Positions 10,033 to 62,768 of a stretch of DNA of 64,000 nt are shown here, one piece after another (the stretch's first letter is position 1; every line of letters starts with the position of its first letter). The position numbers and the translations under genes were made by a program. The DNA lies in assembly GCA_934085675.1 (NCBI GenBank), contig CAKOHH010000001.1, positions 108,562 to 172,561 on the forward strand, read 5' to 3'. Under the pieces are notes generated by a model. The model made no database searches, had not been told where the DNA came from, and was given only the letters and a program-made list of their open reading frames with translations. Source of the DNA: an uncultured Bacilli bacterium (lineage in GTDB: Bacteria > Bacillota_I > Bacilli_A > RF39 > UBA660).

Positions 10033-11301
10033 ATGTTTACAGAGTATGATTATCAAAATGAACCAATTGTTGATATCGTTAATGAAATGCTAGTGGATGC
10101 TGCCAAAAAAAGGGCCAGTGATATCCACATGGACCCAACCCCTGATGTTTTAAATATAAGAATTAGGGTTGATGGAGAACTTATTTTATACGCTAAAGTA
10201 CCCGCGGCGGTTAAGAAAAATTTAGTCACCCGGGTGAAAATTATTTCAGGCATGAATATTACTGAGTCAAGAGTACCTCAAGATGGAGCTATCAAAATGA
10301 CAGTAGATGGCAAAGATTTAGACTTTCGTGTTTCGACACTGCCAATTGTTTATGGAGAAAAAGTCGTTATTCGTCTTTTAGATTATTCAGCTACCCAAGC
10401 ATCATTAGATAGCCTAGGTTTTTCAGAAGAAAACTTAGGTAAATTAAAAGAAGCAATGAATAAACCAAATGGCATTATTTTAGTAACTGGAGCCACAGGT
10501 TCTGGTAAATCAACAACAGTATATTCTATTTTACAATCTTTAAATTGTGTTGAAAGAAATATTATCACCGTTGAAGACCCCGTCGAGATGAAAATAGCCG
10601 GCATTAACCAAGTCCAAACTATGAGTGAAATTGGTCTTACCTTTGCCAGTGCTCTTCGTTCTATTTTAAGACAAGACCCCGACATTATCATGATTGGTGA
10701 GATTCGTGATAATGAAACTGCCCGTATTGCCGTTCGTGCATCTATCACAGGACACCTTGTCCTATCTACTATCCATACTAATAACTCTTTAACAACTATC
10801 GAAAGACTTGTAGATATGGATGTTGAAAGATATTTACTAGGTTCTGCCTTAGAAGCCATTGTTTCTCAAAGACTTTGCAAAAAACTTTGTCCAAAATGTC
10901 GCCGACCAAGAAAAACGACTGACTATGAAAAAAGAGTTATGAAAGAAGCTTTAAAAATGGATATTGATAACATTTATGAACCGGTCGGATGTGATGAATG
11001 TTACAAAGGCTACAAAGGACGTATTGCTTTACAAGAAGTTTTAGTTTTAAATCAAGAAATAAGAGATGCGATTGTCAATAACGCGACTAAAGAAGAACTA
11101 AGGGTACTTATTTACAACAATGGCCATACTTTAAAGTTATTAGATGATGGTTTAATCAAGGTTATTAACGGTTTAACAAGTTTTGAAGAAGTTTTAAGAG
11201 TTATTGATATTAAAGATGACTTAGGTGAAGGTGAATCTGATTTAAAAGACGCTTTAATTGGTAAAAAATCTTCTAAAACAATAGAGGTTGATACTTTATA
11301 A
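10033..11301 (+). CDS. comGA: GspE/PilB-family secretion ATPase (ComGA-like competence/type IV pilus assembly ATPase)
   Basis: Walker A GATGSGKST, Asp box, Walker B, His box. Tetracysteine motif CKKLCPKC...CDEC. 422 aa. No other comG/pil genes are adjacent. Confidence 0.8.
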   Translation: MFTEYDYQNEPIVDIVNEMLVDAAKKRASDIHMDPTPDVLNIRIRVDGELILYAKVPAAVKKNLVTRVKIISGMNITESRVPQDGAIKMTVDGKDLDFRVSTLPIVYGEKVVIRLLDYSATQASLDSLGFSEENLGKLKEAMNKPNGIILVTGATGSGKSTTVYSILQSLNCVERNIITVEDPVEMKIAGINQVQTMSEIGLTFASALRSILRQDPDIIMIGEIRDNETARIAVRASITGHLVLSTIHTNNSLTTIERLVDMDVERYLLGSALEAIVSQRLCKKLCPKCRRPRKTTDYEKRVMKEALKMDIDNIYEPVGCDECYKGYKGRIALQEVLVLNQEIRDAIVNNATKEELRVLIYNNGHTLKLLDDGLIKVINGLTSFEEVLRVIDIKDDLGEGESDLKDALIGKKSSKTIEVDTL

Positions 11302-18099: not shown

Positions 18100-18960
18100 T
18101 TAAGACGGTTGCTTCAATTTTTCGATTTCTTTTTCAGTCAAGCCTGTCACTTTAGAAATATAATTGATATCGTTTGTTTCCTTTAATAAGTTTCTGGCAA
18201 CAATATCAATTCCTTTACTCATACCGATACTGATTCCTTGACTTTTACCAATATCAATTCCTTCTTCACGCCCATAATCACGAGCCTTTTTAAACATACT
18301 TCTTTCTTCATTCATTACTTCATCGCTTAAAAGGGCATTCATATACTCATCCATTGTCATAATTGTTCTCCATTTCTGTTTTAGTTTGTCTCGTTCTTCT
18401 TCACTATTTGCTTTTAAATATCTTAAAATATCTAAAAACTCTTCATCACTTATGCCTACATTATAATTAAGTTTATCTAGTAAATCAAGACGTATGTAAT
18501 AAATTTGAATATCATCTGTTAAAGGATAGCCTTGTTCTTCTAAGAAATATCTTTGCACTAATTTATCTTGTAAAACACCTTTTTTAACATGGTCTACTAA
18601 ATTAATTTGGATAAACTTCTTCATTTTATGATATGGCATGCTTTTTTTTAGTTGACTACTATAACCACGACAAAGATAAACATTTGACTTTCTTAAGTTT
18701 TCTTCATTGAATGTTTTATAAGCTTCTAAGTTTAAAATGACATTGTCTCCTAAAAAAGCAAAAACATCGGCCCTGATATTTTTTTCTTTATAAGTTGCTT
18801 TTTTAAATGGATATTCATGACTTTTAATCTCAATTTGTTTTTCTAAGAAACCTTTAGGTAATCTTAAAACATTTTCTGAGATAACTTCAAGTGGTCGGGT
18901 GTATTCTTCATTTCCTAAGATATTTTTCACCCAGTAGTCTTCCATTAAATCAATTTTCAT
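18100..18960 (-). CDS. Rpn/YhgA-like PD-(D/E)XK recombination-promoting nuclease / putative transposase (copy 1)
   Basis: 286 aa. D...E.K nuclease motif (IRADVFAFL...ILNLEAYK). C-terminal Gly-periodic helix region EEGIDIGKSQGISIGMSKGIDIVARNLL...GLTEKEIEKL, typical of the Rpn family. A near-identical copy lies at 21866-22735. Confidence 0.5.
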   Translation of the reverse strand: MKIDLMEDYWVKNILGNEEYTRPLEVISENVLRLPKGFLEKQIEIKSHEYPFKKATYKEKNIRADVFAFLGDNVILNLEAYKTFNEENLRKSNVYLCRGYSSQLKKSMPYHKMKKFIQINLVDHVKKGVLQDKLVQRYFLEEQGYPLTDDIQIYYIRLDLLDKLNYNVGISDEEFLDILRYLKANSEEERDKLKQKWRTIMTMDEYMNALLSDEVMNEERSMFKKARDYGREEGIDIGKSQGISIGMSKGIDIVARNLLKETNDINYISKVTGLTEKEIEKLKQPS

Positions 18961-19054
18961 GATTTCTTTCTCCTTTCTAAGAAGATAAATAAATTACCTT
19001 CTACTTATATATTCAAAAAAAATCCTTGATTTCCTTTTTTTTAGTGAAAAAAAA

Positions 19055-19089
19055 TTGCAATTTCTTGCAATCTTGACATTTATTTGACA
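19055..19089 (-). promoter_or_regulatory. Direct-repeat motifs TTGCAA-N4-TTGCAA and TTGACA-N5-TTGACA in the rpn-like gene's upstream region
   Basis: Seen directly. Repeated in all three cassette copies (19055-19089, 21011-21045, 22833-22867). A8/T8/A8 homopolymers sit just next to them (19015-19054). Confidence 0.4.
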
Positions 19090-20457
19090 CTAATTAACAA
19101 TATAAGGATCTGTCATAGTGCCGGTTCCTGTAATTGTAACGCCAGACTTTAAATTAATAACCGGACGGCATGCCAGATTTCCACCTGAATATGTATCGTC
19201 AATCGCATAAAAACCAGCATTTTGAGCAGAAAAAATTTTAACCTGTGGGCTTTGAAAATAAGCATCATAATAGCCAGATGGTGTCATTGTCCAAAACTCG
19301 TTTCCAGCAACTAAATAATCATTTATATTTTTTTTTGCATTATTATATTTACCATTTACAATTCCACCAGCATGACCAGCAAACATTACTTCATCAATTG
19401 TAATTAATCCAACCGGATATGTTAAAACTTTATTACCTAAAGAAGAGGAAGAAACAGTATAATAATCACTTGCATTCTCACATACAAGTGTTGGCTTACT
19501 TGCCTCAACTCTTACATATGCTTTATAATAAGTTATCGTTTGTCCTATTCCTGTGTTTGAATCATTTGATAATGAACTGCGATCACCACAAAACCCAACA
19601 TTGATATCTAATTTTGATGCGTAACTCGAAAGTTTATCCGTATAGAACTTATCTACATTTGTTTTAATTTTTGATGATGTTCCCGTACCATGAGTTTCTC
19701 CTTCAGTATACATATAGCCTACATACATATTGTTATTAGAACTTGGATTAAATTGACTGGTGCCATATTGTCTATCTGTTGATGATTCGCCATTAGCATG
19801 GGCACTTGTACCATCATAAATCATTCTAATAGAACCATTGCTGTTTATTCTTATGATTCTCCAATAGTAACCTGCAAACTTGACATAATTGTTTTCTACT
19901 GAACCTCGATAATAATAAGTAGGCTTGCCATCATTGTCTGTTGTTTCATAAATTCCTTTTTCGTGGGATTCACATGAAGAATCATCACAGGCTGACTTTG
20001 TAAAATCTGGAGTATAACTATTAACTTCAATGTTTCCTAAAGCCGTTTTTAGTGTTTTAGCTGTTTTATTAAAATATAAAGTACATTTGGTTCTAGTATT
20101 ATCTGTTGCACTATAATTATAATAATCACCAATGAATTTCCAACCAGCATTATCCCAAGTTGGAACAACGCCATTATTACAGTTTGATTTTGTTTCATCT
20201 AAAGTGTAACCTGTATTTTGAAGAGGCATATTTCTTGATATAACCCCATCTATATAATAAGCAAAATAAATGTCTCCTGGATCTTCTACTGTGCCATTTA
20301 TGACATCAAAAGCTTTCTTTTCTTCATATAAAGCATAGGATTTATAAAATAAATAACTGCTTATGGAAAGTAAAAGAAATCCTATGACTAATATGACATA
20401 AGATTTTCTTTTATAATTATTGTCTTTATATCTTTTTAATTCCATTATCTTCACCAT
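19090..20457 (-). CDS. Secreted variable surface/exoprotein, family A1, paralog 1
   Basis: Sec signal with KSYA-LYEEK cleavage site. Conserved core YYYRGSVENNYVKFAGYYWRIIRINSNGSIRMIYDG. C-terminal tail RPVINLKSGVTITGTGTMTDPYIVN. Paralogous to 7 other ORFs in the window. Confidence 0.7.
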   Translation of the reverse strand: MVKIMELKRYKDNNYKRKSYVILVIGFLLLSISSYLFYKSYALYEEKKAFDVINGTVEDPGDIYFAYYIDGVISRNMPLQNTGYTLDETKSNCNNGVVPTWDNAGWKFIGDYYNYSATDNTRTKCTLYFNKTAKTLKTALGNIEVNSYTPDFTKSACDDSSCESHEKGIYETTDNDGKPTYYYRGSVENNYVKFAGYYWRIIRINSNGSIRMIYDGTSAHANGESSTDRQYGTSQFNPSSNNNMYVGYMYTEGETHGTGTSSKIKTNVDKFYTDKLSSYASKLDINVGFCGDRSSLSNDSNTGIGQTITYYKAYVRVEASKPTLVCENASDYYTVSSSSLGNKVLTYPVGLITIDEVMFAGHAGGIVNGKYNNAKKNINDYLVAGNEFWTMTPSGYYDAYFQSPQVKIFSAQNAGFYAIDDTYSGGNLACRPVINLKSGVTITGTGTMTDPYIVN

Positions 20458-20505
20458 AGTTTCCTATGATGATTATAACAGATACCCCCCCCCCGACTGT
20501 CAATA
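20458..20505 (-). promoter_or_regulatory. Promoter with a G10 homopolymer in the -35/-10 spacer (candidate phase-variation switch)
   Basis: Minus strand reads TTGACAgtc-G10-tatcTGtTATAAT-catcatAGGAAActATG. The poly-C run on the + strand spans 20485-20494. Confidence 0.65.
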
Positions 20506-20544
20506 GGTTTTTATTTTATTTGGTTGCTATAATTGTTTTATTTC

Positions 20545-20909
20545 TTTTTTGGAAAGCACCGAAATCATAGCAATGTAATCTAAATCATCGGTTGTTTTTA
20601 ATAGTCGTTCGATAACTGCCTTTTTCTCTGCATCAATTCCTTCTTCACGGCCATAATCATGAGCCTTTTTAAGCTGACTACTATAACCACGACAAAGATA
20701 AACATTTGACTTTCTTAAATTTTCTTCATTGAATGTTTTATAAGCTTCTAAGTTTAAAATGATATCTTTTCTTAAAAAAGCAAAAACATCGGCCCTGATA
20801 TTCTTTTCTTTATAAGTTGCTTTTTTAAATGGATATTCATGACTTATAATCTCAATTTGTTTCCTAAGATATTTTTCACCCAGTAGTCTTCCATTAAATC
20901 AATTTTCAT
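20545..20909 (-). pseudogene. Rpn-like nuclease gene remnant (two internal deletions, altered 3' end)
   Basis: Start codon and the first ~20 codons are identical to the intact copies. About 360 bp and about 80 bp are missing. Both deletion junctions sit at short direct repeats (gcctttttaa / ttctaaga). Confidence 0.7.
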
Positions 20910-21250
20910 GATTTTTGTCTCCTTCCTAAGAAGATAAATAAATTACCTTCTACTTATATATTCAAAAAAAATCAGCAATTTCCTTTTTTTTAATGAAAAA
21001 AGATTGCAATTTCTTGCAATCTTGACACTTATTTGACATCAATTAACAATATAAGGATTTATTATAATGACTATTCCAATAAAACTAAAGTCTGAGTAAA
21101 TATTGACGCAGTCCTTAAAAACTATTTAAGCCATAACCATCATAAGTTCTTAAATCATATTTTAAAGTATAGGAAAAATTAAAGTCAAATCAACTTAACT
21201 TGATGAAGTCATTATTCAATAGGATATGCCTGCTAAATAAATACTATTTT

Positions 21251-21814
21251 TCACTTTCTCAATTCTTTATTTTTTTCTTTTTCTATATTTGATTCTAATA
21301 TGCTTTCTAAATTTTTATAATAATAAATATTTTCAAGACCTACATGGACTCCTAAAGGTTCAAATTCTATTTGATTAACTAGTACTCCTCCTAAAGATTT
21401 ATGAAATTCATTTGACGGATTACCATCTAGGCAAGCAGTTATAAGTTCAGTATATCCTAGTTTTAATAATTCCTTCATACACTCAATTGCCATTTTTCTA
21501 CCTAGTCCTAAATTTTGAAATTCATCTAAAATATATTCAGAATATATTTCACCAGCATTTGGATAACCATCAAATTTAGTTTTACCAAAAGTACTAAAAC
21601 CGACAATTTTACCATCTACTAATGCCACATATGTATTATTTTTTTGCCTAATGCTATTTTCTTTCTTTTTTATTCTTTCTTCATCCTTGTATTGTAATTT
21701 ATCAATTATCTCTTTTGGTATCAAATCTTTATATGTGCTATTCCATACTTTAATATGTATATCAATTATTCTTTCAGCATCTTCTGGAATGGCTTTTCTA
21801 ATTTCTGTGTTCAT
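21251..21814 (-). CDS. GNAT-family N-acetyltransferase
   Basis: 187 aa with the acetyl-CoA-binding motif Q/RNLGLGRKM. Confidence 0.7.
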   Translation of the reverse strand: MNTEIRKAIPEDAERIIDIHIKVWNSTYKDLIPKEIIDKLQYKDEERIKKKENSIRQKNNTYVALVDGKIVGFSTFGKTKFDGYPNAGEIYSEYILDEFQNLGLGRKMAIECMKELLKLGYTELITACLDGNPSNEFHKSLGGVLVNQIEFEPLGVHVGLENIYYYKNLESILESNIEKEKNKELRK

Positions 21815-21865
21815 TTAATTACTCCTCTCATTTCTTGTTATTATAACACTTTTGTATCCGTATAT

Positions 21866-22735
21866 CTATACTAACACAATTTTCTCTAATTCTTCTTTAG
21901 AAAGTCCTGTGGCAGCAGAAATCTTTTCTAAAGAAAAGTTCATTTTTAAAAGTTCTTTGGATATTAGGATACGTTCCTCTTTTTTGCCAACATCAATTCC
22001 TTTACTCATGCCGATACTGATTCCTTTATCAATTCCTTCTTCACGACCATAATCACGAGCCTTTTTAAACATACTTCTTTCTTCATTCATTACTTCATCG
22101 CTTAAAAGGGCATTCATATACTCATCCATTGTCATAATTGTTCTCCATTTCCATTTTAGTTTGTCTCGTTCTTCTTCACTATTTGCTTTTAAATATCTTA
22201 AAATATCTAAAAACTCTTCATCACTTATGCCTACATTATAATTAAGTTTATCTAGTAAATCAAGACGTATGTAATAAATTTGAATATCATCTGTTAAAGG
22301 ATAGCCTTGTTCTTCTAAGAAATATCTTTGCACTAATTTATCTTGTAAAACACCTTTTTTTACATGGTCTACTAAATTAATTTGGATAAACTTCTTCATC
22401 TTATGATATGGCATGCTCTTTTTTAGTTGACTACTATAGCCACGACAAAGATAAACATTTGATTTTCTTAAATTTTCTTCATTAAATGTTTTATAAGCTT
22501 CTAAGTTTAAAATGATATCTTTTCTTAAAAAAGCAAAAACATCGGCCCTGATATTCTTTTCTTTATAAGTTGCTTTTTTGAATGGATATTCATGACTTTT
22601 AATCTCAATTTGTTTTTCTAAGAAACCTTTAGGTAATCTTAAAACATTTTCTGAGATAACTTCAAGTGGTCGGGTGTATTCTTCATTTCCTAAGATATTT
22701 TTCACCCAGTAGTCTTCCATTAAATCAATTTTCAT
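21866..22735 (-). CDS. Rpn/YhgA-like PD-(D/E)XK recombination-promoting nuclease (copy 2)
   Basis: More than 90% identical to 18100-18960 over most of its length. The C-terminal Gly-repeat region is diverged. Confidence 0.5.
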   Translation of the reverse strand: MKIDLMEDYWVKNILGNEEYTRPLEVISENVLRLPKGFLEKQIEIKSHEYPFKKATYKEKNIRADVFAFLRKDIILNLEAYKTFNEENLRKSNVYLCRGYSSQLKKSMPYHKMKKFIQINLVDHVKKGVLQDKLVQRYFLEEQGYPLTDDIQIYYIRLDLLDKLNYNVGISDEEFLDILRYLKANSEEERDKLKWKWRTIMTMDEYMNALLSDEVMNEERSMFKKARDYGREEGIDKGISIGMSKGIDVGKKEERILISKELLKMNFSLEKISAATGLSKEELEKIVLV

Positions 22736-22864
22736 GATTTCTTTCTCCTTTCTAAGAAGATAAATAAATTACCTTCTACTTATATATTCAAAAAAAATCC
22801 TTGATTTCCTTTTTTTTAGTGAAAAAAAATTGCAATTTCTTGCAATCTTGACATTTATTTGACA

Positions 22865-24229
22865 CTAATTAACAATATAAGGATCTGTCATAGTGCCGGT
22901 TCCTGTAATTGTAACGCCAGACTTTAAATTAATAACCGGACGGAGACCATTGTTATAAACTGTAGCTCCATCGCCAAAAGCACCTAAACCACCGACGCCG
23001 ATTACACTAGTAAACCAGCTAGTTCCGCAGAACGGATAATAACCTCCTGCTGGTGTCATTGTCCAGTAAGAAATTCCCATTATCAAATAACTATCTGCAT
23101 TTTCCTTTTGATGACTATATTCACCATCAAAGACACCACCGGCATGACCTGCATACATAGCTTCATCAGCGGTTATTAAGCCAATCGGGTAGTTTAATTT
23201 TTTATTACCGCTTGCCGCACTAGAAACCGTATAATAATCTTTTATATTTTCACAGGTAAGTGTTGGTGTACTTTCTTCTACCCTTATGTATCCTTTATTA
23301 TAAGTAGTTACCGTGCCGGTTCCGACACCACTTTGCTGAGTTAGGCTAGAACGGTCTCCACAAAAACCTGCATTCGTATCTAATTTTGAAACGTAACTTG
23401 AAAGTTTATCTGTATAGAACTTGTCCACATTTATTTTAACGGCTGAAGCTGTACTCGTGCCATAGGCTTCTCCGGATGTGTACATATAGCCGACATACAT
23501 ATTGTTATCTGATGATGTATTAAATGGACTGGTACCGTATCGTCTATCTTCAGAAGCCTCTCCGTTTTTATGAGCTACTGTCCCATCATAAAGCATTCTA
23601 ATTGAACCATTGCTGTTTATTCTTATGATTCGCCAGTAAAAGCCTGCAAACTTAACATAATTATTTTCGACAGAACCACGATAGTAATAAGTTGGCTTTC
23701 CATCATTGTCTGTTGTTTCAAAAATGCCTTTTTCATGGGATTCACATAAAGAATCATCACAGGCTGACTTTGTAAAATCTGGAGTATAACTATTCACTTC
23801 AATATTTCCTAAAGCCGTTTTTACTGTTTTTGCTGTTTTATTAAAATATAAAGTACATTTAGTTCTTGTATTTGTGGTTGCACTATAATTTTTGTAATTC
23901 ATTTTGGCTTCCCAAGAAGCATTATTCCAAGTTGGAACAACACCATTATTACAATTTGATTTTGTTTCATCTAAAGTATAACCCGTATTTTGAGCTGGCA
24001 TATTTCTTGATATAACACCATCTATATAATAAGCAAAATAGATATCTCCTGGATCTTCTACTGTTCCATTTATGACATCAAAATCTTTCTTTTCTTCATA
24101 TAAAGCATAGGATTTATAAAATAAATAACTATTTACAGAAAGTAAAAGAAATCCTATGACTAATATGACATAAGATTTTCTTTTATAATTATTGTCCTTA
24201 TATTTTTTTAATTCCATTATCTTCACCAT
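22865..24229 (-). CDS. Secreted variable surface/exoprotein, family A1, paralog 2
   Basis: N-terminal ~330 aa nearly identical to paralog 1. The C-terminal third has diverged. The C-terminal tail is the same. Confidence 0.7.
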   Translation of the reverse strand: MVKIMELKKYKDNNYKRKSYVILVIGFLLLSVNSYLFYKSYALYEEKKDFDVINGTVEDPGDIYFAYYIDGVISRNMPAQNTGYTLDETKSNCNNGVVPTWNNASWEAKMNYKNYSATTNTRTKCTLYFNKTAKTVKTALGNIEVNSYTPDFTKSACDDSLCESHEKGIFETTDNDGKPTYYYRGSVENNYVKFAGFYWRIIRINSNGSIRMLYDGTVAHKNGEASEDRRYGTSPFNTSSDNNMYVGYMYTSGEAYGTSTASAVKINVDKFYTDKLSSYVSKLDTNAGFCGDRSSLTQQSGVGTGTVTTYNKGYIRVEESTPTLTCENIKDYYTVSSAASGNKKLNYPIGLITADEAMYAGHAGGVFDGEYSHQKENADSYLIMGISYWTMTPAGGYYPFCGTSWFTSVIGVGGLGAFGDGATVYNNGLRPVINLKSGVTITGTGTMTDPYIVN

Positions 24230-24280
24230 AGTTTCCTATGATAATTATAACAGATACCCCCCCCCCCGACTGTCAAGAGG
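24230..24280 (-). promoter_or_regulatory. Promoter with a G11 homopolymer in the spacer (candidate phase-variation switch)
   Basis: Same TTGACAgtc-Gn-tatctgTTATAAT architecture. The C run on the + strand spans 24257-24267, which is 11 nt. Confidence 0.65.
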
Positions 24281-24291
24281 CTTTTGGGAGT

Positions 24292-25641
24292 TTAATTCAC
24301 TATATATGGATCTGTTTTGGTTCCTGTTCCTGTGATTGTTACATCTGAGCAAATGTTAACAACAGGTTTTATACCTACAGTAGCAGTACATGTCCAGTCA
24401 TTTATTTGACCAACACCCCCATTAAGAAAGAGAGACGTAGACCAATACCCATCACCAATGATAAAAGTTCCAGAAACTGGAGTTATAGTCCAAAAATTTG
24501 TTCCTGATGTATAAATATTTAAACTTTTAGGTTGTATATTTAAAACACCTTCAAACATTCCTCCTCCAGAGCCTGATAGCATTAACTCATCTACCGTGAT
24601 TAAGCCAATATTATACTTTAAACTTCTATTTCCAATGTTTGCTGATGAAATTGTATAATAATCATCATTCATACATGACAAATCAGGATTACTTTGAACA
24701 ACACGCTTATATCCTTCAAAAATGGTGTCATTATTATTAATTCCAGCATTATTGTTATTCGATGTTAAGATAATTCTACGATCCCCACAGAAACCGACAT
24801 TTGTATCTAATTTTGATGCGTAACTCGAAAGTTTATCCGTATAGAACTTATCTACATTTGTTTTAATTTTTGATGATGTTCCCGTACCATGAGTTTCTCC
24901 TTCAGTATACATATAGCCTACATACATATTGTTATTAGAACTTGGATTAAATTGACTGGTGCCATATTGTCTATCTGTCGATGCCTCCCCATTAGCATGA
25001 GCACTTGTCCCATCATAAATCATTCTTATTGAGCCATTACTGTTTATCCTTATGATTCGCCAATAAAAGCCTGCAAACTTAACATAATTGTTTTCTACTG
25101 AGCCACGATAGTAATAGGTTGGATTGCCATCATAGTCTGTTGTTTCAAAAATGCCTTTTTCATGGGATTCACATAAAGAATCATCACAGGCTGACTTTGT
25201 AAAATCTGGAGTATAACTATTCACTTCAATATTTCCTAAAGCCGTTTTTACTGTTTTAGCTGTTTTATTAAAATACAAAGTGCATTTGGTTCTAGTATTT
25301 GTGGTCGCACTATAATTATGATAATCACCAATAAATTTCCAACCAGCATTATCCCAAGTTGGAACAACGCCATTATTACAGTTTGATTTTGTCTCATCTA
25401 AAGTATAACCTGTATTTTGAAGAGGCATATTTCTTGATATAACGCCATCTATATAATAAGCAAAATAAATATCCCCTGGATCTTCTACGGTTCCATTTAT
25501 GACATCAAAATCTTTCTTTTCTTCATACAAGGCATAACTCGGGGATAAAACTAGATATCCTGCTACTACCCCTAATAAAAAAAATAAGAAAAAAATTAGT
25601 ATCTTCTTATAATTTATTTGTTTAAACTTTTTCAAAGACAT
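24292..25641 (-). CDS. Secreted variable surface/exoprotein, family A1, paralog 3
   Basis: Different signal peptide (MSLKKFKQINYKKILIFFLFFLLGVVAG). Same core as paralogs 1/2. Divergent C-terminal third. Tail KPVVNICSDVTITGTGTKTDPYIVN. Confidence 0.7.
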   Translation of the reverse strand: MSLKKFKQINYKKILIFFLFFLLGVVAGYLVLSPSYALYEEKKDFDVINGTVEDPGDIYFAYYIDGVISRNMPLQNTGYTLDETKSNCNNGVVPTWDNAGWKFIGDYHNYSATTNTRTKCTLYFNKTAKTVKTALGNIEVNSYTPDFTKSACDDSLCESHEKGIFETTDYDGNPTYYYRGSVENNYVKFAGFYWRIIRINSNGSIRMIYDGTSAHANGEASTDRQYGTSQFNPSSNNNMYVGYMYTEGETHGTGTSSKIKTNVDKFYTDKLSSYASKLDTNVGFCGDRRIILTSNNNNAGINNNDTIFEGYKRVVQSNPDLSCMNDDYYTISSANIGNRSLKYNIGLITVDELMLSGSGGGMFEGVLNIQPKSLNIYTSGTNFWTITPVSGTFIIGDGYWSTSLFLNGGVGQINDWTCTATVGIKPVVNICSDVTITGTGTKTDPYIVN

Positions 25642-25710
25642 AAAAAAATCACCACAGTTTCCCTATGATGATTATAACAGATACCCCCCCCCCGACTGTC
25701 AAGAGTATCT
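25642..25710 (-). promoter_or_regulatory. Promoter with a G10 homopolymer in the spacer (candidate phase-variation switch)
   Basis: TTGACAgtc-G10-tatctgTTATAAT. The C run on the + strand spans 25684-25693. Confidence 0.65.
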
Positions 25711-56617: not shown

Positions 56618-58597
56618 CTAATTGGTTACAATCTCGTAAGGACTAGAAGATGTTCCTATTCCTCCGCTTATTTTGGCATCTCCTTTGATATTTATAACAG
56701 GACGAACACCATAGCCGCCGGTCACCCAGTCGCTGTTAGGAGAGCCTGAGCTGCCCAAATAGAACTCACCTACCGCCGCATCCGAGATATAGAAACTCCT
56801 CGGAGACAAAGTCCAATAAGTTGACGTACTATAAGTATAAGCAGATTTATTAATATAACCATTGGCATACCCTGAAAGCATTAATTCATCGACTGTAATT
56901 AAGCCAATCGGATAAGTTAAGGCTTTATTTCCTTTAGTATTTGTACTTAAGGTAAATAAATCGTTTATTTGAACGCATTTTAAAGTTGGCTGTTTTGTAT
57001 AAAAATATCTACTATAAGGTCCATAGTTAGTATTAGACCCTGTTGTTGAATATCCATTTCCCGAATCTAGACTTCTATCATTACAGAAACCGGCATCAGC
57101 GATGACTGATTCATTGCTTGTTCCTAAAATATGGGTTTTATACCAATTATCTAATACTTTTTTGATATTGCTATCGTTTTCATTGGCATTTGTTTTTTCA
57201 TAACTTGTATTTAAAGTACTGCCAGACATGTATCCTACATAAGCTGGGTTATCTCTTTTACTATTAAAGGAAGCTGATTTTATATTTAATCCTGAACCAC
57301 TGGCATTGGCTGTTGCTCCCGCATATAAAAGTCTGACACTGCCATCACCATTGATACGAATAATTTGCCAGTAAGCATCAGCATATTTTACATAGTTGTT
57401 ATTTACTGAACCACGATAGTAATAACTTATACCATCAGCATCGGCCATTTGATAAAGTCCTTTATCTGATTTATCACTTTCTCTTTCTGTTTGGTTCAGT
57501 AAATAACCTTTTAAATTATATCTTCTCATTTTGAAAGAAGTTCCTCCTGAACCTGTTGCTGTTCCATCCGTAACACTAGCACTGGTGATTTCATAAATAT
57601 TTGCACAACCTGAGGTATTTTTCCATATTGATATAACATCAGCAGAACTTGTGCGATATCCAGCACCACAGAAATAATACTTAGTATTTCCACCATATGT
57701 TAAAGTAGTTGGATCTACTTGCTGAACATTTGTAATGGTATATGTTCCTGTCTCAGAATTAAAGGTATAACTAGAACCAATGGGAAGTAAAACGGCTGAG
57801 GCAGACAAGTTTTTAAATCTTGCATCTGTATCTTTTTGAGCAACTAAATCTGGATGAGGCATTGTTGATGATGGACTACTTAGACTTGTGGCTTTATTTT
57901 CATTCCAAATAAGAATAGGAGCAGTCCTACTAAAATCAACTGTTTGTTTAGCCGCTATTTTTTGTTTAGATATTTCAGGCGTTGTTTGATATTCGTTAGC
58001 AAGAATAACGTCCGCTAGGGTTGTATAGCCTTGCTCTACTGGGCTATAGTTACTTACTGATGCTGTTACAACTACTTTTGATTTAAAGTTTTTGTTCATA
58101 GCGTCTGTATCTTCTGGCGTAACATCTTCACTCATCCATAATCTTAAGTTATAATCAACACTGTCACCTGAACCTAAAGAACCTTTGGCAAGTATTTTTG
58201 ATGTTACAGAACCATTTATTGTTGTTTTAGCATCTTCTAATTCACTTAGTTTAATAACGCTTTCATTATTTATCATAGAACTAATATATTTTATTGGTAA
58301 CGTATTGTTTTCTAATATTTCTAAATTAACAGTGTAACTGGCAAATAAATCACAAGTATTTGTTATCGTAAAACTATAAGGCGTTAACTTTTTGCCTTCT
58401 TCATTTGTTATAGGGTAAGCATTAACTAAATTAATATTATTTTTTTCATTTGTTAACGATAAACTAAAACAACTTCCTGCTATTTTATTAAAACCTTTTT
58501 GAGACAAATTTAAAGTCCATATAGCATAAGAAATACCAATTATACTTAATATTAGAACAATACTTATCACTATTATTAATACTTTTTTCTTTTTCAT
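56618..58597 (-). CDS. Secreted variable surface/exoprotein, family A2, paralog 1
   Basis: Has the N-module of family B (KLTPYSFTITNTCDLFASYTVNLEIL) and the core of family A (YYYRGSVNNNYVKYADAYWQIIRINGDGSVRLLYAG). Tail RPVINIKGDAKISGGIGTSSSPYEIVTN. Confidence 0.7.
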   Translation of the reverse strand: MKKKKVLIIVISIVLILSIIGISYAIWTLNLSQKGFNKIAGSCFSLSLTNEKNNINLVNAYPITNEEGKKLTPYSFTITNTCDLFASYTVNLEILENNTLPIKYISSMINNESVIKLSELEDAKTTINGSVTSKILAKGSLGSGDSVDYNLRLWMSEDVTPEDTDAMNKNFKSKVVVTASVSNYSPVEQGYTTLADVILANEYQTTPEISKQKIAAKQTVDFSRTAPILIWNENKATSLSSPSSTMPHPDLVAQKDTDARFKNLSASAVLLPIGSSYTFNSETGTYTITNVQQVDPTTLTYGGNTKYYFCGAGYRTSSADVISIWKNTSGCANIYEITSASVTDGTATGSGGTSFKMRRYNLKGYLLNQTERESDKSDKGLYQMADADGISYYYRGSVNNNYVKYADAYWQIIRINGDGSVRLLYAGATANASGSGLNIKSASFNSKRDNPAYVGYMSGSTLNTSYEKTNANENDSNIKKVLDNWYKTHILGTSNESVIADAGFCNDRSLDSGNGYSTTGSNTNYGPYSRYFYTKQPTLKCVQINDLFTLSTNTKGNKALTYPIGLITVDELMLSGYANGYINKSAYTYSTSTYWTLSPRSFYISDAAVGEFYLGSSGSPNSDWVTGGYGVRPVINIKGDAKISGGIGTSSSPYEIVTN

Positions 58598-58630
58598 TTT
58601 TACTATCCTTTCATCTAATAAAAAATAAAA

Positions 58631-60646
58631 CTAATTGGTTACAATCTCATAAGGACTAGAAGATGTTCCTATTCCTCCACTTATTTTGGCATCTCCTTTG
58701 ATATTTATAACAGGACGAACACCACAGCCACCGTCCACCCAGCCATTGAAGTAAGGATAGCCTGCACTATTCAAACTGAACTCTCGTACCACTACATTAA
58801 AATAACTTGGAGATATAGTCCAATAGTTAGACGTACTATAAGTATAAGTTGACTTGTTAATATAACCATCTGCATAGCCTGAAAGCATTAATTCATCGAC
58901 TGTAATTAAGCCAATCGAATAAGTTAAGGCTTTATTTCCTTTAGTACTTGCCCTTAAGGTAAATAAATCATTTGTTTGAGAGCATTTTAAAGTTGGCTGT
59001 TTTGTTTGAAAATATCTTCTCCGAGGTCCATAGATGATGCTAGATTCTGTTGTAGAATAACCATTTCCAAAAGATAAACTTCTATCGTTACAGAAACCAG
59101 CATCAGCGATGACTGATTCGTTATTTGTGCCGAAAATATTGGTTTTATACCAATTATCTAATTCTTTTTTGATATTACTGTCGTTTTCATTGGCTGTTGT
59201 TTTTTCGTAACTTGTATTTAAAGTACTACCATACATGTATCCTACATAGGCTGGGTTATCTCTTTTACTATTAAAAGCAGCTGATTTTATATTTAAACCT
59301 GAACCACTTGCATTACCCGTTGTTCCCGCATATAAAAGTCTGACACTGCCATCACCATTCATACGCATAATACGCCAATAAGCACCTGCATATTTCACAT
59401 AATTGTTGCTTACCGAACCACGGTAGTAATAACTTATGCCATCATCATCTGCCATTTGATAAAGTCCTTTATCCGACTTGTCACTTTCTCTTTCTGTTTG
59501 ACTCATGCTGTATGCTTTTAAATTATATTTTCTGGTTTTGAAAGAAGTTCCACCTGAACCTGTGGCTGTTCCATCAGTATAGGTAGTACTGGTTATTTCA
59601 TAAATATTTGAACAGTCTGATGTAGTTTTATAAACACCAATAACATCATCTGAACTGATATTATAGCCTGAACTGCAGAAATAATACTTAGTATTCCCTC
59701 CATATGTTAAAGTGGTAGGATCTAATTGTTGCACATTTGTTATATCATATTTTCCTGTTTCAGGATTAAAAGTATAACTAGAACCGATAGGAAGTAAAAC
59801 TGATTCAGAAGTCAAGTTTTTAAACCTCGGATCTGTATCTTTTAAAGCTACTAAATCTGGATGAGGCATTATTACTGACTTACTACTTAAGTTAGAATCT
59901 TTGCTTTCGCTCCATATTAAAATTGGAGCTGTCTTACTAAAATCAACTGCTTGTTTGGCCGCTATTTTTTGCTTAGATATTTCGGGTGTTGTTTGATATT
60001 CGTTTGCTAGTATGGCATCTGCTAAGGTTGTATAGCCTTGTTCTGATGGGATGTAAGTACTTCTTTGGGCTCCTATGGTTACTTTTGATAAAAAGGTGGT
60101 ATTCATAGAGTCTGTATCATTTATGGTGACATCTTCATCCATCCATAGTCTAATGTTATAATCAGTACTGTCACCGGAACCAAGGGTTCCTTTAAAAAGA
60201 ACTTTGGAAGAAGAAGCATTATCTAAAGTTGTTTGGGTATCTTCTAAATCTTTTAATTTAGCGATGGCTTCATTATTTACCATTGCTTTAATATATTTAT
60301 AAGGCATCGTAGAATCATTTAAAATTTCTAGGTTAACTGTGTAACTTAAAAATAAATCACAAGTATTTGTTATCGTAAAACTATATGGTGTTAGTTTTTT
60401 TCCTTCGGCATCAGATATGGGATAAGCCTTGGTAAGATTAATATCATTTTTTTCATTAGTTAATGATAAATTCAAACAACTTGTTACAAGTTTTGAAGGA
60501 TTATGACTACTAAAAGTTAAAAGCCAATAAGCATAGGATACACCTATAACTGTCATCATTACTAATAGTATTACAATAATTAAAATAATCTTTTTCTTTT
60601 TGCTCATCTTCTTATACTCCCTTAAGACTAGTATGTAACATAACAT
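58631..60646 (-). CDS. Secreted variable surface/exoprotein, family A2, paralog 2
   Basis: About 75% identical to 56618-58597, with an identical C-terminal tail. The intergenic junction is duplicated. Confidence 0.7.
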   Translation of the reverse strand: MLCYILVLREYKKMSKKKKIILIIVILLVMMTVIGVSYAYWLLTFSSHNPSKLVTSCLNLSLTNEKNDINLTKAYPISDAEGKKLTPYSFTITNTCDLFLSYTVNLEILNDSTMPYKYIKAMVNNEAIAKLKDLEDTQTTLDNASSSKVLFKGTLGSGDSTDYNIRLWMDEDVTINDTDSMNTTFLSKVTIGAQRSTYIPSEQGYTTLADAILANEYQTTPEISKQKIAAKQAVDFSKTAPILIWSESKDSNLSSKSVIMPHPDLVALKDTDPRFKNLTSESVLLPIGSSYTFNPETGKYDITNVQQLDPTTLTYGGNTKYYFCSSGYNISSDDVIGVYKTTSDCSNIYEITSTTYTDGTATGSGGTSFKTRKYNLKAYSMSQTERESDKSDKGLYQMADDDGISYYYRGSVSNNYVKYAGAYWRIMRMNGDGSVRLLYAGTTGNASGSGLNIKSAAFNSKRDNPAYVGYMYGSTLNTSYEKTTANENDSNIKKELDNWYKTNIFGTNNESVIADAGFCNDRSLSFGNGYSTTESSIIYGPRRRYFQTKQPTLKCSQTNDLFTLRASTKGNKALTYSIGLITVDELMLSGYADGYINKSTYTYSTSNYWTISPSYFNVVVREFSLNSAGYPYFNGWVDGGCGVRPVINIKGDAKISGGIGTSSSPYEIVTN

Positions 60647-60781
60647 GTATTTTAAACTACCTTTATTATTACTTTATAAGTATAGCACTTTATCGCACAT
60701 TTTAGCAACTTGTTTTCAAATAAAAAAACGAGTAAGTCTCGCTTTTTTAGAATAAATATTTTATGTTGTATCTTTAAAAAA

Positions 60782-62768
60782 TTAGTTTGTTACAATCTCA
60801 AATGGACTAGAAGATGTTCCTATTCCGCCACTTATTTTAGCATCTCCTTTGATATTTATAACAGGACGAATACCATTGTCGTCGGTCACCAAGCGGTCGC
60901 TAGGATAGCCTGAGCTGCTCAAAGCGAACCCACTCGCCTCCGTATTCGAGCCACGGAACTTCCTCGGAGACAGAGTCCAATAAGACCTTGTACTGTATGT
61001 ATAAGCAGATTTATTAATATAACCATCAGCATATCCTGAAAGCATTAGTTCATCGACAGTAATTAGGCCAATCGGATAAGTTAAGGCTTTATTTCCTTTA
61101 GTACTTGTGCTTAAGGTAAATAAATCGTTTGTTTGAGCACACTTTAAAGTTGGTTGTTTAGTTTCATAATATCTATAATGTGACCCGTAGTATGTAGAAG
61201 AACCTGTTGTAGAATATCCATTTCCTGAAGACAAACTTCTATCATTACAGAAACCGGCATCAGCGATGACTGATTCATTGCTTGTTTCTAAAATATTGGT
61301 TTTATACCAATTGTCTAATTCTTTTTTGATATTGCTGTTGTTTTCATTGGCTGTTGTTTTTTCATAACTTGTATTCAAGGTACTACCATACATATAACCG
61401 TTGTAGGCTGGATTATCTTCTTTAACATTAAAGGTTTCCGATTTTATTCTTAATCCTGAACCACTGGCATTGGCTGTTGTTCCCGCATATAGAAGTCTGA
61501 CACTGCCATCACCATTGATACGAATAATTCGCCAGTAAGCACCAGCATATTTTACATAGTTGTTATTCACTGAACCACGATAGTAATAACTTATACCATC
61601 ATCATCTTCACTTTTGTATAGTCCTTTATCCGATTTGTCGCTTTCTCTTTCTGACTGAGTCATACGATAACCTTTTAAATTATATGTTCTGGTTTTGAAA
61701 GAAGTTCCGCCTGAACCAGTTGCTGTTCCATCTTCAAAACTGGCACTGGTGATTTCGTAAATACTTGAACATCCTGAGGTATCTCCCCATATAGATATAA
61801 CATCAGCAGAACTTGTATTATATCCCGCACTACAGAAATAATACTTCGTAGTCCCACCATATGTTAAAGTGGTTGGATCTACTTGTTGAACATTTGTGAT
61901 ATCATATTTTCCTGTTTCAGAATTAAAAGTATAACTAGAGCCAATTGGCAGTAAAGGTGATTCAGCATTTAACTTTTCAAATCTCGCATCTGTATCTTTT
62001 AAGGCAACTAAATCGGGATGAGGCATCGTTGCAGTTTTAGTACCTAGGTTAGTGTCTTTATATTCACTCCATGTTAAAATTGGAGCCGATTTACTAAAAT
62101 CTACGGTTTGTTTGGTGGCGATTTTTTGTTTAGATATTTCAGGAGTTGTTTGATATTCGTTGGCTAGTATGGCATCGGCAATGGTTGTATAGCCTTGTTC
62201 TACTGGACTATAATTACTTCTTTGGGCTCCTATGGTTACCTTAGATAAAAAGGTGGTATTCATAGAGTCTGTATCATTTACGGTGATATCTTCATCCATC
62301 CATAGTCTAATGTTGTAATCAGTACTGTCGCCTGAACCAAGAGTTCCTTTAAAAAGAACTTTGGAAGAAGAGGCATTATCTAAAGTTGTTGGGGTATCTT
62401 CTAAATCTTTTAATTTAGTAATGGCTTCATTATTTACCATAGACTTAATATATTTATAAGGCATCGTGGAATCATTTAAAATTTCTAGGTTAACTGTATA
62501 ACTTAAAAATAAATCACAAGTATTTGTTATTGTAAAACTATAGGGAGTTAACTTTTTTTCCTTCTTCATCAGATATAGGATAGGCTTTGGTAAGATTAAT
62601 ATCATTTTTTTCATTTGTTAATGATAAACTCAAACAACTTGTGACAAGTTTTGAGGGATTATGACTACTAAAAGTTAAAAGCCAATAAGCATAAGAAACA
62701 CCTATAGCCAACGACATCATTATTAATAGTATTATAATAATTAAAATAATCTTTGTCTTTTTGTGCAT
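60782..62768 (-). pseudogene. Family A2 paralog 3, frameshifted (ORFs 62538-62768 and 60782-62614)
   Basis: The reading frame is broken at an A7 run (plus-strand T run 62555-62561). The intact paralogs have A6 plus G at this position (gga aaa aag tta ac). The upstream region is homologous to 60647-60781. Confidence 0.65.

Follow-up and report, generated by a model that had tools for sequence, protein, structure and literature searches.

Organization of the array between efp and spoIIP

The stretch of DNA analyzed here (hereafter the window) comprises 64,000 nucleotides (nt) of contig CAKOHH010000001.1 from an uncultured Bacilli bacterium, with a base composition of 30.4% G+C. On its minus strand, flanked by efp and spoIIP, lies an array of three paralogous genes of ~450 codons, which we call surf1, surf2 and surf3, together with two intact genes of the Rpn family, rpn1 and rpn2. 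The explanation that we favor, and consider reasonably probable, is a contingency locus, in which individually promoted surface genes would be switched by poly-G tracts and would recombine with one another, while the rpn genes would be co-duplicated passengers.

Along the direction of transcription the order is efp, promoter P3 and surf3, promoter P2 and surf2, a spacer, rpn2, a GNAT acetyltransferase gene, a decayed cassette, promoter P1 and surf1, a second spacer, rpn1, spoIIP and lepA. The upstream neighbor efp (26288-25728, minus strand, as are all features of the array) is followed by P3 (25671..25702) and by surf3 (24292..25641), the first gene of the array, which encodes a variable protein of 449 amino acids (aa) that is predicted to be secreted or anchored, and which has no rpn downstream. 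P2 (24244..24276) precedes surf2 (22865..24229), a 454-aa paralog of surf1 and surf3. Between surf2 and rpn2 lies a spacer of 129 nt (spacer 2, 22736..22864), 100% identical to the 129-nt spacer 1 (18961..19089) between surf1 and rpn1. The rpn2 gene (21866..22735) encodes a PD-(D/E)XK protein of the Rpn family with 289 aa and a distinct tail of its own, formed by four-residue repeats and a helix-turn-helix (HTH). The GNAT gene (21251..21814) is inserted inside the array, and behind it the decayed cassette (20520..21070) comprises ~20 nt from the end of a surf gene, a spacer with 94% identity and an rpn pseudogene with two internal deletions (residues ~19-33 and ~111-220). P1 (20472..20503), surf1 (19090..20457; 455 aa) and rpn1 (18100..18960; 286 aa, likewise an Rpn-family PD-(D/E)XK protein) complete the array. 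An earlier note on this DNA had described two repeat cassettes and a third promoter-gene unit (P3-surf3), and its coordinates and parts are correct, all of them on the minus strand; the decayed cassette, the GNAT gene and the divergent C-termini of the rpn products had been overlooked. For surf1 and surf2, the open reading frame (ORF) finder places the start at MVKIMELK... (20446-20457 and 24218-24229, respectively). A GGTGA ribosome-binding site precedes the second ATG (MELK...), and the real start is probably this ATG four codons downstream, which also fits the N-termini of homologs.

Genomic context was obtained through homologs and through look-ups of efp and spoIIP. The resulting set holds 75 surf-family loci from roughly a dozen species-level metagenome-assembled genomes (MAGs) and, with other related loci, amounts to 1.28 Mb. 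The MAGs are those of Candidatus Ventrenecus avicola, Candidatus Ventrenecus stercoripullorum, 'uncultured Bacilli' from Hadza and Brazilian gut metagenomes and 'uncultured Tenericutes UMGS1217', and nearly all of the comparison sequences are short-read metagenome contigs (loci are cited by their L numbers). Among the related loci examined, no GNAT gene was found at the efp-spoIIP locus of other strains, and the GNAT segment with its flanks (21060-21870) occurs only in the strain of the window. The junction between the GNAT segment and the decayed cassette lies ~20 nt before a surf stop codon, with no obvious homology there, which suggests illegitimate recombination or an insertion event.

A poly-G tract lies in the promoter of every surf gene

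Each surf gene is preceded by the sequence TTGACA-GTC-G(n)-TATCTGT-TATAAT, with n being 10 in P1 (20485-20494), 11 in P2 (24257-24267) and 10 in P3 (25684-25693), so that an uninterrupted homopolymer separates the -35 and -10 hexamers in all three surf promoters of the window. The seven overlapping G9 matches in the 64 kb all fall within these promoters, while 0.03 would be expected in shuffled sequence. The three promoters share an extended -10 element (TGn) and a spacer of 20-21 nt between the hexamers (20 nt in P3), and are therefore not called by a consensus scan that allows spacers of 16-18 nt.

The same arrangement recurs in the 1.28 Mb of related loci. There, 63 of the 73 distinct runs of at least eight G lie no more than 160 nt upstream of a surf-family gene, with lengths of G9 (8 runs), G10 (41), G11 (13) and G12 (1). 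The tract is retained even where the flanking promoter sequence differs strongly, and a second promoter class (TTGAC-Gn-N10-TACAAT) has G9 and an 18-nt spacer in L047 and L066. Tract length varies between strains. Orthologs of P3 behind efp in 10 other strains carry G10 in nine cases and G11 in one (L095), a tract of G12 stands in L002 and L003 against G11 in L004, and three cases of two tract lengths on identical flanks were found, in short-read assemblies. P2 has G11 in the window and G10 in the near-identical locus L091, and this is the sole indel in 13.6 kb. Substitutions break up the tract of the efp-proximal promoter in two strains where other genes have taken the place of the surf gene downstream (GGGGGAGTGGGG in L002, ~1300-1330; GGGGGGTGGGTGGGG in L094, ~10600-10630). 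Since the decay is found precisely where the downstream gene has been lost, the purity of the tract appears to be maintained only while the gene is present. Uninterrupted tracts of G9 and longer are intrinsically hypermutable in all bacteria studied, as simple-sequence contingency loci. On this comparative evidence, the poly-G tract is a maintained, hypermutable element.

Further G9-10 tracts stand in promoter-like sequences with no surf-family gene behind them (L049:4393, L051:9193, L082:9668, L050:8538, L046:195 and L033:5622), one example being TTGACAAATTGTTT-G9-TTATAAT with an 18-nt spacer. Poly-G promoter switching may be a general habit of the lineage. 

Downstream of the promoters, the surf mRNA leaders (minus strand; 20440-20478 for surf1, 24212-24250 for surf2 and 25647-25673 for surf3) fold into a conserved hairpin of 9-11 bp (z = -5.3). 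Its loop is of the GAAA type, and the GGUGA Shine-Dalgarno sequence forms part of the 3' arm. The hairpin may add translational or stability control on top of a poly-G switch. The surf3 hairpin has U7 behind it and was marked as resembling a terminator. A further homopolymer, an in-frame A9, lies in the variable part of surf1 (19328-19336; nt 1122-1130 of the gene). L090 (~11760) has A8 there, which splits the gene into parts of 372 and 65 aa; either slippage acts here as a second, intragenic switch or the homopolymer was misread in sequencing.

Exact blocks abut divergent blocks within the array

Units 1 and 2 align by BLASTN (18201-20512 vs 21988-24285) with 86.9% identity over 2330 nt. In windows of 60 nt, identity is ~90-98% over the 5' ~650 nt of surf, 68-88% in its middle and 38-73% in its 3' third, after which it rises abruptly to 100%. 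The longest exact match measures 363 bp (18806-19168 = 22581-22943) and spans the final 79 nt of surf, the entire spacer and the initial 155 nt of rpn; beyond it, rpn1 and rpn2 are ~97% identical except for their divergent last ~150 nt. An exact intragenic tract of 175 bp is common to units 1 and 3, and an exact tract of 123 bp to units 2 and 3. The divergence of the 3' third of the surf genes is thus as the earlier note had described it, while its 'nearly identical' cassettes hold for the spacer and rpn and overstate the first two-thirds of surf, where identity is ~90%. Given that the exact tracts include synonymous sites and non-coding DNA and stand beside sequence of 40-60% identity, differential constraint alone is insufficient to explain them, and because all of these blocks belong to one contiguous sequence, they are not artefacts of joining samples.

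In the 5' part of the spacer, an AU-rich hairpin (AAGAUUGCAA-GAAA-UUGCAAUUUU) and the U8 behind it resemble a terminator for surf. The 3' part of the spacer is predicted to hold the rpn promoter and leader, with a second hairpin and an AAAGGAG ribosome-binding site, and these 3' ~80-130 nt accompany rpn even at sites without surf. The rpn genes are themselves mosaic: a patch with six nucleotide differences (GDNV vs RKDI, residues 71-74; 18736-18795 vs 22511-22570 vs 20750-20790) is alike in rpn2 and the decayed copy and different in rpn1, and the homolog P0121 joins an rpn1-type patch to an rpn2-type tail.

Arrays and alleles differ between strains

L091, from another sample, differs from the window at 18 positions in the 13.6 kb that run from the upstream housekeeping genes through the spacer. 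Besides the P2 indel, these are 12 single-nucleotide polymorphisms (SNPs) in 25306-25600, in the 5' part of surf3, and five in 24131-24197, in the 5' part of surf2; no differences were seen in ~10 kb of flanking housekeeping genes. At both clusters L091 carries alleles that recur with 100% identity in paralogs A2 and A3 of L001, a second array from L091's own sample that lies downstream of rbfA and has three surf genes. Such differences match the expected appearance of short conversion tracts and homopolymer slippage.

L001 also contains an apparent chimera. Its gene 1 equals surf3 at alignment columns 360-810 and equals surf1 from column 720 onwards, through the gene end and into the spacer, so that the 3' 640 nt of surf1 are found with 100% identity at another locus. 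The flanks of this gene are unique on both its 5' and 3' sides, and an artefactual origin would therefore need two switches. At the efp locus, arrays differ even among strains with identical EF-P: L090 has one gene with a surf3-type 5' part and a surf1-type 3' part, followed by rpn and spoIIP, and elsewhere two surf genes or still other arrangements are found. Among more distant strains, L002-L004 carry a single surf gene and an rpn without a start, and L006 carries a surf gene and a 241-aa rpn. The uvrB locus likewise shows surf-HTH-surf-rpn in one arrangement and a broken surf, then rpn and an extra gene, in another. Taken together, the exact blocks beside divergent sequence, the chimeras at other loci and the L091 alleles that match paralogs bear out the proposal that these paralogs recombine segmentally, and the cassettes are not static across strains, as arrays, copy numbers and alleles all differ. 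Contigs of related strains often break off at a poly-G promoter or within a surf or rpn gene (L096-L099, L088, L089 and L007-L012 among them), and the counts of surf-family genes are for this reason likely to be underestimates.

The surf products belong to a large uncharacterized family

The N-terminus of the surf proteins consists of a basic stretch, a hydrophobic segment of ~20 residues and an invariant SYA-(L/F)-YEE junction, which we read as a putative signal peptide or signal anchor; neither an LPXTG motif nor a lipobox is present in the proteins. Searches of Pfam, NCBIfam, PHROG and PDB sequences gave no matches to surf1-3. PDB sequence searches with the surf profile and with rpn1 gave none even at E = 10, and exact-sequence look-ups found no identical database record for surf1 or rpn1. 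An AlphaFold2 model of surf1 from a 40-sequence alignment reached a predicted local distance difference test (pLDDT) score of 40 and a predicted template modeling (pTM) score of 0.25. Residues ~50-300 are highly conserved, and variability peaks at residues 299-323 and 374-444. In sliding windows, the maxima of nonsynonymous divergence (pN, 0.49) and of its ratio to synonymous divergence (pN/pS, 0.73) both fall at residues 399-420, and no window exceeded a pN/pS of 1, the threshold for positive selection.

The family has 6,979 matches among clusters at 90% identity, and a profile search returned 8,242 clusters at 50% identity, of which 2,413 at E < 1e-30. Its ~290-residue C-terminal domain occurs in 1-11 copies per protein, in proteins of up to 4,905 aa, and the genomes in the set have from several to 23 surf copies in the loci examined. 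DUF6273 (PF19789) does not match surf1-3. It scores 19.6 and 18.4 bits with two larger paralogs in the window (cut-off 23.5). Two representatives of the family do exceed the threshold, P0326 with 32.4 bits and P0353 with 27.4, with alignments confined to the final ~50-100 positions of the profile. The surf proteins represent a very large uncharacterized family, weakly DUF6273-like and multi-copy in gut Bacilli resembling Candidatus Ventrenecus.

The larger paralogs are three (659, 671 and 610 aa; 56618..62614, minus strand). They stand in tandem, without a poly-G promoter and without rpn, and have the ~290-aa C-terminal domain in common with surf1-3 at ~36% identity. One of them is 100% identical to P0203, which lies on a 188-kb NCBI/ENA contig.

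The rpn genes encode ordinary Rpn-family proteins

Both rpn products match PF12784 (PDDEXK_2) above its cut-off of 27.4 bits (rpn1, 55.1 bits, E = 1e-14; rpn2, 52.1 bits, E = 9.6e-14). TIGR01784 ('Rpn family recombination-promoting nuclease/putative transposase'; cut-off 52.1) gives 53.8 bits for rpn2 and 46.5 for rpn1. The predicted model of rpn1 shows an N-terminal PD-(D/E)XK nuclease fold and a C-terminal tail that appears RpnA-S-like. An Rpn-type PD-(D/E)XK protein had been expected, and these matches and the predicted fold agree with it; its proposed membership in PF04754 does not stand, no match to that family being listed. The residues D8, D65 and E79 of rpn1 correspond to D11, D63 and E82 of RpnA, and D65 and E79 are invariant in the homolog alignment (A3). 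RpnA requires D11, D63, E82 and Q84 for catalysis, and a change of Q84 abolishes recombination promotion, while Q84A is still toxic (PMC5350276). The equivalent of Q84 is Tyr81 in both genes (codons 18718-18720 in rpn1 and 22493-22495 in rpn2) and throughout the Ventrenecus clade, whereas the distant homologs P0200-P0202 keep Gln.

Ahead of the C-terminal HTH stand GIxx four-residue repeats, in 1-6 copies among close homologs, and rpn1 and rpn2 differ exactly there. A variable number of four-residue repeats is a published hallmark of the Rpn family and sets toxin-antitoxin specificity; the C-terminal domain is separately translated as the antitoxin RpnS, and the genes serve in phage defense and are not transposases (PMC10400941). 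In rpn1, candidate internal starts are M201 (with GGAG-N7 before the ATG) and M216/M222, 11-17 residues ahead of the repeats. Many of the 82 rpn homologs are fragments of 166-194 aa. A frameshift at the A8 tract of rpn1 (nt 312) was considered as the origin of truncated copies and ruled out, since other strains have A6GA there and no shift. PADLOC gave no meaningful match, the sole PHROG match, to the Rpn C-terminus, was a generic 'transposase' (E = 8e-10), and no Rpn relatives were found in viral contigs. From these features, rpn1 and rpn2 are ordinary Rpn-family genes (PDDEXK_2, COG5464), presumably of the toxin-antitoxin or defense type.

Rpn genes recur beside surf genes and are often absent

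The earlier note had proposed a dedicated Rpn paralog for each cassette, and this is contradicted by the counts. Unit 3 has no rpn, and in the loci examined of the closest genomes about seven of 33 surf genes have an adjacent rpn (CAJLEF 2/10, CAKOHG 2/12, CAKOOQ 2/5, CAKOQM 1/6). In more distant genomes there are none among 37 (CAKOMI 0/23, DVGF 0/4, DVHP 0/3, URPE 0/7), or one among 50 if CALVOL is included, where one of 13 surf genes adjoins an rpn relative with 31% identity. Conversely, rpn occurs without surf and with its own ~80-130-nt leader retained (L007-L012, L227-8), in settings that include a position beside an IS3 transposase gene, one directly after rbfA and one upstream of a sortase-substrate gene. 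In L227 (1320-4022; also in L228), an rpn with 55% identity stands directly upstream of the gene for a 900-aa protein, which is followed by a sortase gene; this protein, with a signal peptide and a C-terminal hydrophobic anchor, belongs to a surface-protein family different from surf. In L001, spacers or rpn stubs remain where rpn has been deleted. The linkage of rpn to surf is thus recurrent at several loci and neither universal nor obligatory.

As a measure of mosaicism, we counted pairs of surf genes with one 90-nt window of at least 99% identity and another of at most 70%, a crude measure applied to small samples. Mosaic pairs make up 40% in the gene set of the window and L001, the highest value of all, and 7% (CAJLEF), 0% (CAKOHG), 0% and 10% (CAKOQM, with an rpn fragment only) in the other Rpn-bearing genomes, against 1% (CAKOMI), 8% (CALVOL) and 0% in genomes that lack an adjacent rpn of the window's clade. 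Within the limits of this measure and of the small samples, no dose-response between Rpn presence and mosaicism was seen across genomes, and mosaicism therefore does not track Rpn. In addition, both conversion tracts that distinguish L091 from the window are situated in the 5' parts of surf genes, and the distance to the nearest rpn is 1 kb or more. We found no paper in which Rpn genes are connected with families of variable surface genes, and our literature search on the Ventrenecus-like lineage returned nothing beyond its naming.

Discussion

A contingency locus as the preferred explanation

We propose that the host, an uncultured gut Bacilli bacterium of about 30% G+C related to Candidatus Ventrenecus, carries here a tandem array of complete paralogs whose products would be secreted or N-terminally anchored, with the first ~300 residues conserved and hypervariable stretches in the C-terminal ~150. 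Slipped-strand changes between G9 and G12 would alter the -35/-10 spacer length and with it promoter strength, so that each copy could be switched up or down singly; the tract and its length polymorphism are seen directly, and an effect on expression is what they suggest. The copies would also swap segments by homologous recombination, through gene conversion and unequal crossing-over, for which the conserved 5' two-thirds may provide homology on one side and the gene end with spacer and rpn, or the next promoter, on the other. Such exchange would reshuffle the variable 3' part and alter copy number. Its footprints are present in the window and in related strains, and it is presumably RecA-dependent. 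As for rpn, we suppose that it landed downstream of a surf gene and was then co-duplicated, homogenized and repeatedly deleted together with surf. Its contribution to surf variation would most likely be passive, in that it offers ~1 kb of portable homology 3' of the variable region and needs no nuclease activity to do so. Co-duplication of a defense or toxin-antitoxin gene is, in our judgment, the best explanation of the surf-rpn linkage, and arrays of rpn are known to form through tandem duplication of genomic segments (PMC10400941). Genes of the Rpn family are known as nested, gene-within-gene systems of toxin-antitoxin and antiphage nucleases, which propagate through hitch-hiking as well as through tandem duplication.

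Several points weigh against this explanation. Canonical spacing is absent from the ~25 promoters of the window's class, whose spacers all measure 20-22 nt. Control sequences with the same half-sites, taken from a metagenome pattern scan (TTGACANTC-N5-16-TATCTGYTATAAT) in which, among the matches listed, two of 120 are related, have a gap of 6-7 nt (spacer 16-17) in 99 of the 120. Every assembled copy is consequently predicted to have a weak or silent promoter, and no ON length was seen, which weakens the case for transcription switching through a change in spacer length. Moreover, G10 is the modal length in promoters with different flanks, so that the tract could have a length-specific role besides spacing. 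Two features alone point to a surface location, a hydrophobic segment at the N-terminus and the SYA|LYEE junction that the proteins conserve. Short-read contigs may mis-join or consensus-mix paralogs and thereby mimic mosaics and SNP clusters. Finally, the surf-spacer-rpn order recurs at efp-spoIIP, uvrB, rbfA and several other sites, far above random adjacency, which is compatible with a functional link.

Alternative explanations

Such a link would be strongest if Rpn were the engine of variation, as the earlier note had suggested. An adjacent Rpn protein would then nick or cut locally, at the spacer hairpin or the surf 3' end, and repair from a paralog would leave conversion tracts. That the surf-rpn order occurs in no fewer than 4-5 species-level genomes, and at several chromosomal sites without relation to one another, is in keeping with this proposal. 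So is the place where identity changes most steeply within the window, from ~60% to the 363-bp exact block, 79 nt before the surf stop and beside rpn, and the set formed by the window and L001 does have the top mosaic fraction. In E. coli, overexpression of RpnA-D raises RecA-independent recombination (PMC5350276), and RpnL may, in a speculation of Zhong et al. (PMC10400941), start off the recombination by which rpn genes are duplicated. However, most surf genes have no rpn, including all of those in CAKOMI, URPE, DVGF and DVHP, and yet they are expanded, under poly-G control and variable; CALVOL and CAKOMI have mosaic rates similar to those of the Rpn-bearing CAJLEF and CAKOHG; and one of the L091 conversion tracts lies in the rpn-less surf3. 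Many rpn copies are truncated or deleted, and a Tyr occupies the position of the Gln that RpnA needs for recombination promotion. Because RpnA has little sequence specificity and can act in trans, a copy in each cassette would also be unnecessary. The proposal of a built-in engine is therefore unsupported, and we regard an active role of this kind as unlikely. The specific version in which an adjacent rpn, once expressed or de-repressed, would cause a break near the surf 3' end or spacer that is repaired from a paralog, so that an Rpn nuclease would have been recruited as the local recombination initiator of a phase-variable surface family, seems to us similarly doubtful. Were this so, a natural cellular function would be known for the first time for the 'recombination-promoting' activity of Rpn, and programmed antigenic variation in a Gram-positive-type gut commensal would have machinery of a new type. 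The rpn gene might instead be a mobile element, resembling a transposase, that inserts downstream of surf and carries surf 3' ends along. The family is widely annotated as 'putative transposase', in line with the PHROG match; rpn with its own leader sits at unrelated sites, once beside an IS3 transposase gene, and the remnant at 20520-21070 begins with just ~20 nt of surf. Against mobility, no terminal inverted repeats were found at the units, for which reason an IS-like element was rejected, and the left boundary of similarity varies from site to site (unit positions 1, 24, 45, 82, 102 and 150). No relatives were found in viral contigs, and the published analysis of rpn genes found no defined ends, no target-site duplications and no sign of autonomous transposition (PMC10400941). 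We give this explanation very little credence.

Two further alternatives deny ongoing change. The paralogs may be static, the products of an old tandem duplication under uneven constraint, with the mosaics, chimeras and SNP clusters arising as artefacts of short-read assembly. Assemblers do struggle here, and since contigs often stop within these repeats, some mosaics could be assembly products; the crossovers lie inside exact shared tracts that exceed typical k-mers, and pN/pS never rises above 1. What speaks against stasis is that exact tracts of 363, 175 and 123 bp, synonymous and non-coding sites included, stand beside sequence of 40-60% identity in one contiguous sequence, that the same locus with consistent flanks has one, two or at least three surf genes and an rpn that is intact, stubbed or absent, and that the unique flanks of L001 gene 1 demand two artefactual switches. 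We consider stasis quite improbable. Alternatively, the poly-G tract could be a fixed cis-element near 10 G, such as a binding site or a structural element, with changes of one G representing sequencing or assembly noise. Illumina data are error-prone at long G runs, the G10 mode is common to three promoter classes with different flanks, and the canonical spacer of 17-18 nt is absent from the window's class. But lengths from 9 to 12 exist, the single indel in 13.6 kb between near-identical strains falls in the tract, and decay by point substitution is seen exactly where the downstream gene has been lost. Other poly-G promoters with G9 have spacers of 18-19 nt (L049, L051, L047 and L066), which fits control by spacing, and uninterrupted tracts of this length are generally hypermutable in bacteria. 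A fixed element thus appears unlikely, and slippage in a contingency locus remains our preferred account.

Significance

Pathogens such as Neisseria, Haemophilus and Mycoplasma provide the textbook examples of contingency loci, in which surface-gene families recombine and are switched by repeats; to our knowledge, such loci have hardly been described in uncultured Firmicutes-type gut commensals. Here, a very large unannotated family is apparently run as a contingency system across a whole lineage of the human and chicken gut, and what looks like poly-G slippage and conversion tracts between near-identical strains is already visible in public metagenomes. This points to strong diversifying pressure on a surface structure, be it from phage, immunoglobulin A (IgA) or competitors. 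The surf-rpn linkage also offers a natural setting in which to consider the native function of Rpn, as a promoter of recombination in cis or as a defense or toxin-antitoxin passenger. On the practical side, repeats of this kind break short-read MAG assemblies and can yield chimeric gene calls.

Comparison with known systems

Neisseria pilE/pilS, Borrelia vlsE and Treponema tprK resemble the array in their segmental, non-reciprocal transfer bounded by conserved blocks. However, they use one expression site with promoterless silent donors, and some have a cis-acting initiator (the G4 of pilE). All three surf copies in the window, and nearly all of those in related loci, are full-length ORFs with a promoter of their own. 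Given that neither silent cassettes nor a single expression site was seen, the array is not a system of the pilE/pilS or vlsE type. Closer parallels lie among families with homopolymer promoters. In Mycoplasma hyorhinis Vlp, M. capricolum and M. mycoides Vmc/Vmm and the N. meningitidis genes porA (poly-G) and opc (poly-C), the length of a homopolymer or dinucleotide tract between the -35 and -10 elements sets promoter activity, and Vlp, like the array, consists of tandem paralogs with one switch each. In these systems, though, tract lengths straddle the optimal spacing of 16-18 nt, whereas the window's promoter class is always at 20-22 nt, and Vlp varies repeat number whereas the array shuffles 3' segments. 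Neisseria Opa likewise has several complete genes, some scattered and some in tandem, every one with a simple-sequence repeat as its own switch, and has conserved regions around hypervariable segments, with intragenomic recombination producing mosaics and chimeras. It differs in that its switch is translational, through coding CTCTT repeats instead of a poly-G tract in the promoter spacer, and in that its protein is a beta-barrel with no interleaved nuclease gene, while the array protein is weakly DUF6273-like and belongs to a Gram-positive-type commensal. 

The rpn products, for their part, share with E. coli RpnA-E and plasmid RpnP2 an N-terminal PD-(D/E)XK domain with a D...E-x-(Q/K) core (PMC5350276, PMC10400941), a C-terminal three-helix domain after a hypervariable four-residue repeat, and multi-copy arrays formed by tandem segment duplication without defined ends. 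The E. coli proteins belong to PF04754 (Transposase_31/PDDEXK_1), and RpnA has Gln at position 84, whereas those of the window belong to PF12784 and have Tyr, and lie recurrently directly downstream of one surface-protein family, which has not been reported previously. Overall, the array resembles Neisseria Opa, families of the Mycoplasma Vlp type and homopolymer promoters of the porA/opc type in the way it would work. The principle of the contingency locus is already known, and the novelty lies in the protein family and the lineage, in spacers of non-canonical length and in the repeated linkage to Rpn.

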